The position numbers and the translations under genes were made by a program. Shown here piece after piece: positions 18,039-34,748 of a DNA stretch of 64,000 bases. The stretch is taken from positions 1,902 through 65,901 of the forward strand of contig JAHFJR010000002.1 in NCBI GenBank assembly GCA_023245775.1, given 5' to 3'. Every line of letters begins with the position of its first letter. Position 1 is the stretch's first letter. Source of the stretch: Candidatus Peribacteria bacterium. GTDB taxonomy: Bacteria > Patescibacteriota > Gracilibacteria > Peribacterales > Peribacteraceae. A model generated the notes under the pieces. That model ran no database searches and was not told the DNA's origin. It saw nothing but the letters and a program-made list of their open reading frames with translations.

Positions 18039-18057
18039 CGCAGTACAATGATTGTAT

Positions 18058-18118
18058 GCCCAGGTGGCGAACCTGCCTCCCGGAGGGAGGATGGCAGACC
18101 TGCCTACCGGCAGGCGCG
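18058..18118 (+). pseudogene. degenerate copy of the tRNA-Leu 5' part, interrupted by two palindromic modules
   Basis: gcccaggtggcgaa + [cctgcctcccggagggagg] + atggcagac + [ctgcctaccggcagg]. With the bracketed palindromes removed it matches the tRNA-Leu 5' end gccggggtggcgaaatggcagac (18373-18395) at 21/23 positions. Confidence 0.65.
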
Positions 18119-18141
18119 TCTTCCTTCCCTATTTCTCTTCT

Positions 18142-18408
18142 ATGTTTACAGTCTATGTGCTTCGTAGCCAAAAGCGAGAATATTGGTATGTAGGACTCAC
18201 TGCCAATCTTGAGCGTCGTGTTACTGAGCATCAGGATGGCAGAGAGCGTACGACAAAACCTTATCGTCCGTTTGATCTTGTACACACTGAAAATTTTACA
18301 ACTCGACCTGAAGCTCGAAAGAGAGAAAAATACTTAAAGTCAGGCTCTGGAAAAGAATGGTTAAAAACCCCTGCCGGGGTGGCGAAATGGCAGACGCATC
18401 AGCCTTAG
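18142..18408 (+). CDS. small GIY-YIG nuclease superfamily protein (88 aa)
   Basis: FTVYVLRSQKREYWYVGLTANLERRVTEHQ...ARKREKYLKSGSGKEW is a GIY-YIG (UPF0213-like) pattern. The 3' end overlaps tRNA-Leu. Confidence 0.75.
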   Translation: MFTVYVLRSQKREYWYVGLTANLERRVTEHQDGRERTTKPYRPFDLVHTENFTTRPEARKREKYLKSGSGKEWLKTPAGVAKWQTHQP

Positions 18409-18458
18409 GAGCTGACGGGAGCAATCCCATGGAGGTTCAAGTCCTCTCCCCGGCACCA
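18373..18458 (+). tRNA. tRNA-Leu (anticodon TAG), long variable arm, CCA encoded
   Basis: Manual cloverleaf. Acceptor GCCGGGG/CCCCGGC. Anticodon stem TCAGC/GCTGA with loop CTTAGGA. Variable arm cgggagcaatcccatg. T-arm GGAGG-TTCAAGT-CCTCT. Confidence 0.85.
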
Positions 18459-33911: not shown

Positions 33912-34224
33912 CTTCAGATTGATCTCCCGATTGGCCTTGTACGAGAGCGGAGCGAAGAACGGCTGCGGTTGCGTCATGAGACAGGGGGAAAATCGGAGGG
34001 ATGGTACGTGAAAATATACTTCAGCGTATAGTGTGGTTCGTACACCAAACAATCATTCTGCGGTTTCTGGCTGCGATTGACAATACAGAATGATAAAAGG
34101 ACAATGAAGATGTTGCAGATTGCTGCAGCTCGTACAGGTTGTTTGTGACATCGTTTTTGATTTGGAGCCTATCAGCCTAGGCTGATGGTTAGATCCCTCA
34201 CATCATCGTCAAAACTATAATCGT

Positions 34225-34301
34225 GGAGCCATAGCTCAGCTGGTTAGAGCGCTTCCCTGTCACGGAAGAGGTCGCGGGTTCGAATCCCGTTGGCTCCGCC
34301 A
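34225..34301 (+). tRNA. tRNA-Asp (anticodon GTC), CCA encoded
   Basis: Manual cloverleaf. GGAGCCA/TGGCTCC acceptor, GCTC..GAGC D-stem, CTTCC-CTGTCAC-GGAAG anticodon arm, GCGGG-TTCGAAT-CCCGT T-arm. Confidence 0.9.
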
Positions 34302-34311
34302 CGTCGTTCGC

Positions 34312-34393
34312 GAACGACGTGGCTCCGCCACCAACTACTCGAACGACGTGGCTCCGCCACCAACTACTCGAACGACGTGGCTCCGCCACCAAC
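34312..34393 (+). repeat. 2.8 tandem copies of a 29-bp unit carrying a copy of the tRNA-Asp 3' end
   Basis: Unit gaacgacgtggctccgccaccaactactc at 34312-34340 and 34341-34369, partial from 34370. gtggctccgcca compares with the tRNA 3' end ttggctccgcca. Confidence 0.9.
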
Positions 34394-34398
34394 CACGC

Positions 34399-34404
34399 TA
34401 CAAT
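34399..34404 (+). promoter_or_regulatory. -10 hexamer TACAAT, 6 nt upstream of ATG 34411
   Basis: Fits the TAnnnT-N6-ATG pattern. Confidence 0.4.
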
Positions 34405-34410
34405 GATTCC

Positions 34411-34668
34411 ATGTGGTACTTTTATGTGCTTCAAAGCATTAAACAGTCGGATTATTTTTACAAAGGATCAACCAATGATCTTCGAAGAAGATTCAGCCAA
34501 CACAACACTGGCGCAGTGACTTCGACCAAGCCATATCACCCTATGCGATTGGTGTATTACGAGGCATATGTCTCCGAGCATGGTGCGAGAATAAGAGAAG
34601 CTTCAGTGAAGAAAAGTGGCAGTGTGCTTGTATCATTGCTCAAGCGTATTCGAGAAAGTCTTGAGTAG
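34411..34668 (+). CDS. small GIY-YIG nuclease superfamily protein (85 aa)
   Basis: WYFYVLQSIKQSDYFYKGSTNDLRRRFSQHN...REASVKKSGS is a GIY-YIG pattern. The longer ORF-track version starts inside the tandem repeat. Confidence 0.75.
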   Translation: MWYFYVLQSIKQSDYFYKGSTNDLRRRFSQHNTGAVTSTKPYHPMRLVYYEAYVSEHGARIREASVKKSGSVLVSLLKRIRESLE

Positions 34669-34670
34669 CT

Positions 34671-34720
34671 CGCGGGGGTTGGCTCCGCCACGTCGCTCGC
34701 GAGCGACGTTGCTCCGCCAC
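34671..34720 (+). repeat. second copy of the tRNA-Asp 3' end plus a 20-nt palindrome, downstream of the GIY-YIG gene
   Basis: cgcgggggttggctccgcca + acgtcgctcgcgagcgacgt + tgctccgccac. Compare the tRNA 3' end + acgtcgttcgcgaacgacgt at 34291-34320. Confidence 0.85.
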
Positions 34721-34748
34721 ATCAAAAAATATTTCCTTTCTACGATTC

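Follow-up and report, generated by a model that had tools for sequence, protein, structure and literature searches.

A tRNA-anchored palindrome linked to a minimal GIY-YIG nuclease gene in Candidatus Peribacteria and related bacteria: a candidate two-part selfish system

The stretch of DNA analysed here, called the window throughout, comprises 64,000 nucleotides of a Candidatus Peribacteria bacterium (assembly GCA_023245775.1, contig JAHFJR010000002.1, positions 1,902 to 65,901). Between positions 34225 and 34720 it carries a compact cassette composed of a tRNA-Asp gene, a palindrome, a short tandem array, a gene for an 85-amino-acid (aa) GIY-YIG nuclease, and a second copy of the palindrome together with pieces of the tRNA 3' end. 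A first-pass annotation had described this cassette and proposed that it belongs to a GIY-YIG element family that targets tRNA genes and duplicates the target segment. All the features it listed for the tRNA-Asp cassette were found where it had placed them, far beyond chance expectation, by window shuffles, Tandem Repeats Finder (TRF), ARAGORN and Rfam; its interpretation was borne out only in part. The features, with the promoter-like site ahead of them, are as follows.

34077–34105, plus strand: promoter-like site TTGACA-17-GACAAT, 5' of tRNA-Asp (consensus scan only, 10/12 matches, weak evidence)
34225–34301, plus strand: tRNA-Asp(GTC) gene with encoded CCA, ending ttggctccgcca (ARAGORN; Rfam RF00005, 73.3 bits)
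34298–34323, no strand: palindrome A, perfect over 26 nt, GCCA-CGTCGTTCGCGAACGACG-TGGC, whole form GCCACGTCGTTCGCGAACGACGTGGC
34311–34393, plus strand: tandem array, period 29 nt, 2.9 units (TRF, 100% matches)
34324–34331, plus strand: second copy of the tRNA 3' end, TCCGCCAC (from sequence)
34411–34668, plus strand: GIY-YIG nuclease gene, 85 aa, catalytic domain only, Slx1/UPF0213-like (PF01541, E=2.9e-12)
34669–34690, plus strand: tRNA-Asp 3' fragment lacking the T-loop, ctcgcgggggttggctccgcca (from sequence)
34687–34712, no strand: palindrome B, GCCA-CGTCGCTCGCGAGCGACG-TTGC, palindromic at 25/26 positions (from sequence)
34713–34720, plus strand: third copy of TCCGCCAC (from sequence; the motif tgctccgccac spans 34710–34720)

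The last four bases of tRNA-Asp, GCCA, are at the same time the outer left arm of palindrome A. The 20-nt palindrome of the first-pass annotation (acgtcgttcgcgaacgacgt, 34301–34320) is present and proved to be the inner part of the perfect 26-nt form, which takes in the tRNA's own GCCA. A 3-nt direct repeat, TCC, stands on both sides of palindrome A (34295–34297 and 34324–34326), and the TCCGCCAC at 34324–34331 is read as the original tRNA-Asp end, displaced. Units 2 and 3 of the tandem array keep the right palindrome arm and TGGCTCCGCCAC, and have the left arm replaced by CCAACTACT. Past the gene, the fragment at 34669–34690 consists of the 5' strand of the T-stem fused straight to the acceptor 3' strand and GCCA, and palindrome B contains a perfect 20-nt part (acgtcgctcgcgagcgacgt, 34690–34709), with an outer mismatch in its 26-nt form (TTGC for TGGC). 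The cores of the two palindromes differ by one complementary pair (T..A versus C..G) and both are perfect over 20 nt, which bears out the compensated pair noticed earlier. The 26-nt pattern was found in the 64 kb only at palindromes A and B (0.00 expected in window shuffles), the unit CGACGTGGCnnnGCCA had eight matches in the window versus 2.2 expected, and the hairpin, folded as single-stranded DNA, reached −16.1 kcal/mol (z = −4.9).

The GIY-YIG gene is the only open reading frame (ORF) in the block 34217–34727, and no recombinase gene lies within or beside the cassette. In the consensus scan the site at 34077–34105 was the sole plus-strand promoter-like site ahead of the cassette, and neither promoter-like nor terminator-like sites were detected between tRNA-Asp and the GIY-YIG ORF; the same site may also drive the nuclease gene. 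A role of the palindromes as intrinsic terminators was ruled out: neither A nor B has a T-run on its 3' side, and the scan reported no terminator-like site.

The 85-aa protein matches PF01541 with 47.1 bits (cut-off 22.6), and the invariant columns of an 18-sequence alignment include Y5, Y17, G19, R27, H31, E51 and E63; of these, we take Y5, Y17, G19, R27, H31 and E63 to be the catalytic GIY-YIG positions, from knowledge of the fold. A PDB profile search returned UPF0213 structures (1zg2, 3e-9; 1ywl, 3.5e-8) and Slx1 (~1e-5). The AlphaFold2 model (predicted local distance difference test score, pLDDT, 88) was matched by Foldseek to Slx1–Slx4 and At-HIGLE with template modelling (TM) scores of 0.64–0.68 and a probability of 1.0, and only poorly to I-TevI (E=0.8) and UvrC (E=2). 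The protein has a single domain (residues 1–68) plus one helix, with no second or DNA-binding domain. It matched no NCBIfam family, no homing-endonuclease family reached the cut-off, and the homologue of the protein at the window's tRNA-Leu scored 17.5 bits against TIGR01453 (cut-off 56). By profile and predicted model, the protein is thus assigned to the Slx1/UPF0213-like branch of the GIY-YIG fold. Nucleases of the Slx1/HIGLE/UPF0213 type cut branched, flap or junction DNA, not a specific sequence. The alignment and the model speak for a nuclease that acts on DNA structure, and not for a homing enzyme that reads a sequence, and the hairpin or cruciform of the palindrome would be the obvious candidate substrate. 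The identity of a classical sequence-specific homing endonuclease was rejected for this lone Slx1/UPF0213-like catalytic domain, to which I-TevI is a poor match. Membership of a defence system was likewise rejected, as the cassette protein had no PADLOC match.

We then considered the family to which the locus belongs. The protein has 238 homologues, and those that are named are Peribacter, Peregrinibacteria, Uhrbacteria or Patescibacteria proteins. When each species was represented by a single genome, scanning yielded a set of 80 related loci in genome bins of the ultra-small bacteria of the candidate phyla radiation (CPR), and about 50 of the 80 have a same-strand tRNA 33–380 nt 5' of the gene, in agreement with the proposed tie of this GIY-YIG family to tRNA genes. 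At many of the loci without a tRNA, a contig end cuts off the sequence just 5' of the gene. The isotypes represented are Ser, with four anticodons, Asp, Trp, Gln and Arg; each of these tRNAs has GCCA as its end or, in a few cases, a variant of it. In 45 of the 49 tRNA loci a perfect palindrome (at least 11 of 13 pairs) begins at the GCCA of the tRNA, in a locus set that was found by protein similarity and was blind to the palindrome.

The spacer between tRNA and gene has a constant layout, tRNA...C-xy-GCCA, an 18-nt perfect palindrome, and TGG-C-xy-GCCA-C, in which xy repeats the final acceptor-stem bases of the local tRNA. The copy after the palindrome accordingly reads CCTGCCA at tRNA-Trp, CCAGCCA at tRNA-Gln, GCACGCCA at tRNA-Arg and CTCCGCCA or CACCGCCA at tRNA-Ser; in locus L034, where the tRNA ends in GCCC, GGGC stands opposite and a CTGCCC copy follows. 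The palindrome cores of this protein-anchored set comprise 14 distinct sequences, with both arms changed at 7/13 pair positions. Protein-anchored loci without an intact tRNA retain the palindrome, with a tRNA-like ...xyGCCA end just before it.

Gene and palindrome are linked by position from both directions. Among the 53 family loci with enough upstream sequence, 49 carry a near-perfect palindrome of 24 nt no further than 450 nt 5' of the ATG (median 120 nt, range 20–356), versus 13 of 335 control windows in the same loci. From the side of the palindrome, in 754 kb of loci chosen solely for carrying it, 40 of the 41 strong GIY-YIG matches have the palindrome at the gene or up to 430 nt 5' of it, with the gene pointing away. 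The palindrome usually flanks the gene on the 5' side only: a copy downstream of the stop was found in three of the 75 related loci whose sequence reached far enough past it (L022, L047 and L057), plus the window, and these have it on both sides.

A metagenome scan made with GCCACGTCGNTCGCGANCGACGTGGC gave at least 120 loci and at least 124 palindrome copies; the copy statistics given here hold among the matches listed. Of the 124 listed copies, 29 have both a tRNA and a GIY-YIG gene nearby, 13 have just a tRNA, 11 just a GIY-YIG gene, and 71 neither of the two. A direct repeat of at least 2 nt surrounds 90 of the 112 non-redundant copies (68 of 2 nt, 21 of 3 nt and one of 9 nt), against a chance level, from flank permutations, of 14 on average and 28 at most. 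C precedes the left repeat in 87 of these 90 copies and G follows the right repeat in 85, which defines the target as C-NN^G; an alternative parse, a 24-nt CCA...TGG insert with a 4–5 nt CNNG duplication, describes the data equally. The N/N' pair, both positions of which had been left free in the search pattern, is complementary in 107 of the 112 copies and, as judged from these pairs, the symmetry of the palindrome is maintained. One empty site of the palindrome was identified: in L186, CTTTTGACAA runs uninterrupted into GGCCCC, versus L097 with the palindrome and a second AA. The automated comparison of empty sites was swamped by tRNA and palindrome cross-matches, and L097/L186 was the sole clean pair.

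Insertion of the palindrome into a tRNA after position 72, just ahead of G73, with a 2–3 nt duplication, would reproduce exactly the layout described as a repeated tRNA 3' end, and the repeat appears to arise mostly in that way, at the palindrome. The palindrome had no match in viral contigs and the protein none among PHROG families, and a phage origin was rejected on these grounds. In three loci the palindrome overlaps a tRNA 5' end by 2–3 nt (L108 1432–1457, Met; L134 5257–5282, His; L200 8586–8611, Cys); it can sit at the first bases of a tRNA and perhaps even supply them. A conserved segment of ~30 nt, RGTTCTAAC...ACTAGCCCCTGCCA, lies directly left of the palindrome at sites without a tRNA gene (L028, L038, L056, L075, L122 and L179); it resembles the 3' part of tRNA-Trp and is ~7 nt too long.

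The first-pass annotation had also proposed a duplication of the target segment around the gene, and this part holds for the lineage of the window and not for the family. The four closest proteins (80–87% identical; L201, L203, L204 and L205) are all encoded at tRNA-Asp, and each locus carries a tRNA-Asp 3' fragment and/or a palindrome past the stop; in L204 the fragment has the same T-loop deletion as in the window, and the gene stands within a direct repeat of ~85 nt. That tRNA 3' copies bracket the gene is therefore real and conserved in this lineage, and rare family-wide. A k-mer test found a tRNA 3' copy after the gene in 5 of 49 loci (versus 1.9% of control windows), and local alignment of the tRNA 3' region with the 250 nt past the stop was strong in L022 only and weak in L033 and L040. 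A post-gene copy of tRNA or palindrome is absent from ~90% of the family loci, being present in the window, its four closest relatives and L022; as a family rule it was rejected, and was kept for the window lineage only. The repeat that is constant in the family abuts the palindrome instead.

The similarity of the window to L201 and L203–L205 spans ~34217–34727 and ends there; the cassette of L201 has an ion-transport gene on its 5' side and a Na/Ca-exchanger gene on its 3' side, neither of which is found at the window locus. Consistently with the earlier suggestion that the tandem units might vary in number, they differ among these closest relatives: two half-units occur in both the window and L205, of which the window alone also has a full palindrome (one); L201 has one full palindrome only, and L204 two degenerate units.

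Taken together, we read the locus, at a probability of about one half, as one copy of a selfish two-part system of nuclease and hairpin that is widespread in the CPR (Patescibacteria) and anchored at tRNA ends. The first part would be the 26-nt palindrome (GCCA, 18-nt core, TGGC), which would insert at C-NN^G in the manner of a miniature element, with a 2–3 nt duplication, and whose ends imitate the tRNA acceptor end. It would enter between position 72 and G73 of a GCCA-ending tRNA, supply a new GCCA and move the original xyGCCA 22 nt downstream, and with the new GCCA supplied the tRNA would stay intact. The second part would be the 85-aa nuclease gene, 20–356 nt past the palindrome and pointing away from it. 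Its product would recognise the hairpin or cruciform of the palindrome by structure, not sequence, and make short staggered cuts, thereby mobilising or maintaining the palindrome and its own cassette. The gene in the window would probably rely on read-through from the tRNA promoter. Repeated cutting and repair, with recombination among palindrome copies, would generate the half-palindrome units and, past the gene, the second module; were the two modules to recombine with each other, the gene would be lost and only the tRNA and palindrome would remain, as in the 13 listed metagenomic loci of that kind. The T4 GIY-YIG endonuclease SegB is reported to leave mostly 2-nt 3' ends (PMC2330249), and ends of this type would fit a 2–3 nt duplication. 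The anatomy of the locus, its recurrence, the flanking duplications, the single empty site, the linkage of gene and palindrome and the fold class of the protein are observed; which enzyme cuts, with what geometry, and how the element moves are inferred.

Several observations are signs of a selfish life cycle. Genes decay (shortened in L076 and L190, reduced to the first 18 nt of the ORF in L195) with palindromes kept beside them, and L145-type loci have retained the spacer and lost the gene. Contigs often break at these GIY-YIG loci, the number of tandem units varies, and one subfamily, described below, is framed by inverted repeats. The presence of the gene is patchy, with several paralogues per genome. 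Whether a minimal Slx1-like GIY-YIG nuclease in fact mobilises a 26-nt hairpin element, which would make this a new nuclease-plus-palindrome mobile class sparing tRNA genes through acceptor-end mimicry, is a more tentative proposal, which we regard as possible and somewhat doubtful.

A number of results weigh against the two-part selfish reading. Nuclease and palindrome are linked by position only, and 84 of the 124 listed palindromes have no GIY-YIG gene nearby, 71 of these also lacking a tRNA; repeats without the gene are one half of what the first-pass annotation had named as speaking against its own view. The duplication brackets the palindrome alone, not palindrome plus gene, so that the gene lies outside the visibly inserted unit, and no empty site of the whole cassette was found via the neighbouring 415-aa protein, which has one other homologue, on a 2.2-kb contig. 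A lone nuclease cannot rejoin DNA and would need host repair, and the half-palindrome tandem units are poorly accounted for. The proteins group by tRNA isotype across phyla, which could mean that they have been inherited vertically together with tRNA genes for a long time and serve the host. Co-evolution of the palindrome core with the protein lineage was looked for and not seen, as core variants do not follow protein lineages: L058 and L080 have a common core and unrelated proteins, L007 and L014 have proteins 81% identical and different cores. Such independence fits structure-specific recognition, and equally fits two independent parts. The window protein is an exception to the isotype grouping: it stands at tRNA-Asp, yet falls among Ser-linked proteins (nearest there L001, tRNA-Ser, 80%). 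The terminus of the window tRNA-Asp, CTCCGCCA, is the same as that of tRNA-Ser, and this placement fits a choice of target by the last ~8 tRNA bases.

Three other explanations have to be set beside it. The gene could be a host UPF0213-type housekeeping or repair gene, long resident in tRNA operons, and the palindrome an independent repeat resembling repetitive extragenic palindromic (REP) sequences or an RNA hairpin, moved or maintained by another enzyme, with a preference for GCCA-type sites, and sharing with the gene a preferred place only. The solo state of most listed palindromes, the cores that do not co-vary with protein lineages, and the good conservation of the proteins and their isotype grouping across phyla, the chief argument, all favour this account, as do the existence of UPF0213 members as ordinary bacterial proteins with solved structures and the consensus scan of the window, in which no gene-specific promoter was seen. 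We nevertheless think it unlikely, in view of the 11 listed metagenomic palindromes that accompany a GIY-YIG gene without a tRNA, the upstream palindrome kept at protein-anchored loci without a tRNA, and the orientation of 40 of 41 strong gene matches away from a palindrome at or just 5' of them. Pseudogenes, deletion stubs, patchy presence, several paralogues per genome and direct repeats around the gene in the closest relatives also sit badly with a housekeeping gene.

A free-standing homing endonuclease like T4 Seg/Mob would cut cassette-free tRNA 3' regions of incoming or sister DNA, with repair copying the gene and the palindrome splitting the target and so protecting the resident copy. 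The solo palindromes at many non-tRNA sites run counter to it, and to our knowledge homing leaves no target duplication, whereas duplications are the rule at palindromes (90/112 listed copies). The protein, at 85 aa, has no DNA-binding domain, resembles I-TevI-type structures poorly (E=0.8) and reaches the cut-off of no NCBIfam homing-endonuclease family, or indeed of any NCBIfam family, and neither palindrome nor protein has a match in phage data. These points make homing quite unlikely, in spite of the GIY-YIG catalytic domain, the occurrence of close homologues at different tRNAs (the window protein and that of L001, at tRNA-Ser, are 80% identical, and the window tRNA-Asp shares its terminal CTCCGCCA with tRNA-Ser), and the block of tRNA and cassette conserved amid different flanking genes in the window and L201. 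The position beside a highly conserved tRNA also recalls SegB, which lies in the T4 tRNA cluster (PMC2330249). The least probable of the readings is a classical tRNA-targeted cassette, the model of the first-pass annotation, in which a small circle with a tRNA 3' copy recombines by host or trans-acting recombination, so that the tRNA is made whole again and the fragment it displaced ends up beyond the insert, in an attL/attR-like arrangement. It would explain the post-gene tRNA 3' fragment and/or palindrome in the window, L022, L203, L204 and L205 and, more weakly, L033 and L040, the ~85-nt direct repeat around the gene in L204, the tRNA-like 3' ends retained at non-tRNA sites, and the mirror-image 5' duplication in the cassette type that lies upstream of a tRNA. 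Against this stand the lack of any recombinase within or beside the cassette, the lack of the post-gene copy in ~90% of family loci, and the constant duplication, which encloses the palindrome only.

Compared with known systems, the two-part arrangement resembles REP/REPIN sequences with their RAYT transposases: both have short dispersed hairpin palindromes, a low-copy nuclease gene flanked by repeats, and many solo copies. RAYT, however, is an HUH/Y1 transposase and the gene here encodes a GIY-YIG nuclease; moreover, REPs carry a GTAG or CGTC tag that is unpaired, and their palindromes are imperfect, whereas the present palindromes are perfect, have a 2–3 nt duplication and are mostly one-sided. 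CGTC-tagged REPs are reported to have no associated transposase and consist of an unpaired CGTC head, an 8–9 bp stem starting with A-T pairs, a 4–5 nt loop and a CCA tail (PMC3733652). Membership of that class was rejected: here CGTC is paired with GACG, the stem reaches up to 13 bp and is G+C-rich, and CCA lies 5' of CGTC. They are the closest published analogue, without a known enzyme and different in structure (PMC3733652). With miniature inverted-repeat transposable elements (MITEs) the palindrome has in common its pair of inverted arms, a brief target duplication and the abundance of non-autonomous copies, and a related gene-bearing form is framed by inverted repeats of another sequence. 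The palindrome has the inverted arms, the target-site duplication (90/112 listed copies) and an empty site (L097 versus L186) expected of such elements, but its 26 nt hold no internal sequence and lie far below the usual MITE size, and none of the known transposase families takes part.

On the protein side, the closest counterparts of the 85-aa protein, by sequence as well as by structure, are Slx1, At-HIGLE and UPF0213 (BH0048, EF2693). Slx1 differs in having an added RING domain and working with Slx4, and UPF0213 in that the gene here forms a multi-lineage cassette tied to a palindrome; the literature search found no link of UPF0213 to repeats or tRNA genes. T4 SegB and the I-TevI family share the GIY-YIG catalytic domain, and SegB shares the setting in a tRNA cluster and is reported to leave mostly 2-nt 3' ends (PMC2330249). 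The enzymes of that family come with a DNA-binding domain, are found in phages or introns and act without target duplication, whereas here the catalytic domain stands alone in a chromosomal CPR context with zero matches in phage data. Integrative elements that target tRNAs also insert at the tRNA 3' end without damage to the tRNA, and in some copies here a stretch of the tRNA is duplicated, but the present cassette has no integrase, a cargo of ~0.4 kb, and a duplicate that is mostly just xyGCCA beside the palindrome. No published description of a palindrome plus GIY-YIG nuclease system was found in the literature search, and the pairing of a palindrome with a mini-nuclease looks like an undescribed kind of selfish DNA.

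If the nuclease does drive the palindrome, this would be a new route of DNA movement in bacteria, with a structure-specific GIY-YIG nuclease in the place of a transposase and an element that is hardly more than a hairpin. It would form a functional parallel to RAYT/REP with different chemistry, and could point to the missing enzymes of orphan palindromic repeats elsewhere. The imitation of the tRNA 3' end by the palindrome ends would offer a harmless entry into essential genes, the tRNA being rebuilt upon insertion. In practical terms for CPR genomics, assemblies break at these loci, pseudo-tRNA fragments arise there, and the annotation of tRNAs can be misled. For UPF0213 and bacterial Slx1-like proteins, on which the literature search found no functional study, the palindrome provides a lead in the form of a testable natural substrate.

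Related arrangements were seen in other loci. Tandem arrays of 3–4 units lie between tRNA and gene in L019, L020, L007, L050, L058, L080 and L118, with units composed of the right palindrome half, TGGCxyGCCAC and a pyrimidine-rich spacer. A rule by which the tandem period equals 26 nt plus the duplication length was dropped: it is true in the window (29 nt), and elsewhere the period is ~25 to 30 nt by eye. A tRNA-Asp with hairpin-like inserts in the D-loop and anticodon regions occurs in L004 (~35–150), where ARAGORN calls no tRNA, and in L201 (2661–2730), as a tRNA-Asp 5' fragment upstream of an intact gene.

The window itself holds a second cassette type. A more distant GIY-YIG gene of 88 aa (18142–18408; identity to the first, 44%) runs into tRNA-Leu (18373–18458), and 5' of it, in the region 18052–18458, lies a tRNA-Leu 5' fragment, gcccaggtggcgaa...atggcagac, broken by short hairpin-forming inserts. 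In support of the first-pass view, the tRNA-Asp and the tRNA-Leu type of cassette are each placed with an intact tRNA on one side and an incomplete copy of that tRNA on the other. A distant gene of this type stands directly 5' of a tRNA at the window tRNA-Leu and in L018/L124, L063, L064 and L150; of the five cases checked, four (L018, L063, L064 and L150) have a 10–37 nt copy of the tRNA 5' end ahead of the gene, and at the window tRNA-Leu the match is split and gapped only. In L018 (2041–2755, equal to L124 5138–5855) and L150 (1434–2272) one tRNA-Trp lies between both cassette types, the tRNA-Leu-type gene ending a few nt 5' of the tRNA and the palindrome-type gene following 3'.

A further subfamily (43–50% identical, starting MFY, gene at ~2501–2750; L065, L067, L068, L069 and L074) has its ORF inside a split palindrome, framed by inverted repeats of ~17 nt such as ACCCCCTCACTCGAAAA...ORF...TTTTCGAGTGAGGGGGT; these differ in sequence from the 26-nt palindrome, and no known transposase is involved. 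In Uhrbacteria-labelled loci and close relatives (L017, L018, L030, L041, L043, L045 and L049), a conserved spacer ~40–130 nt 5' of the ATG contains, in order, an inverted repeat GGTCACG...ATGTGACA, a terminator-like hairpin AAAAGAGCGCC...GGCGTTCTTTTG and a TATAAT-like box before the ATG, an order of motifs that suggests the gene may have its own regulated promoter in this clade. Elsewhere in the window, long 30/60-nt tandem repeats at 1333–1583 (TGTGAAGACG...CAT...GAGGAGAAA) probably code for a Cys/His/Glu-rich repeat.

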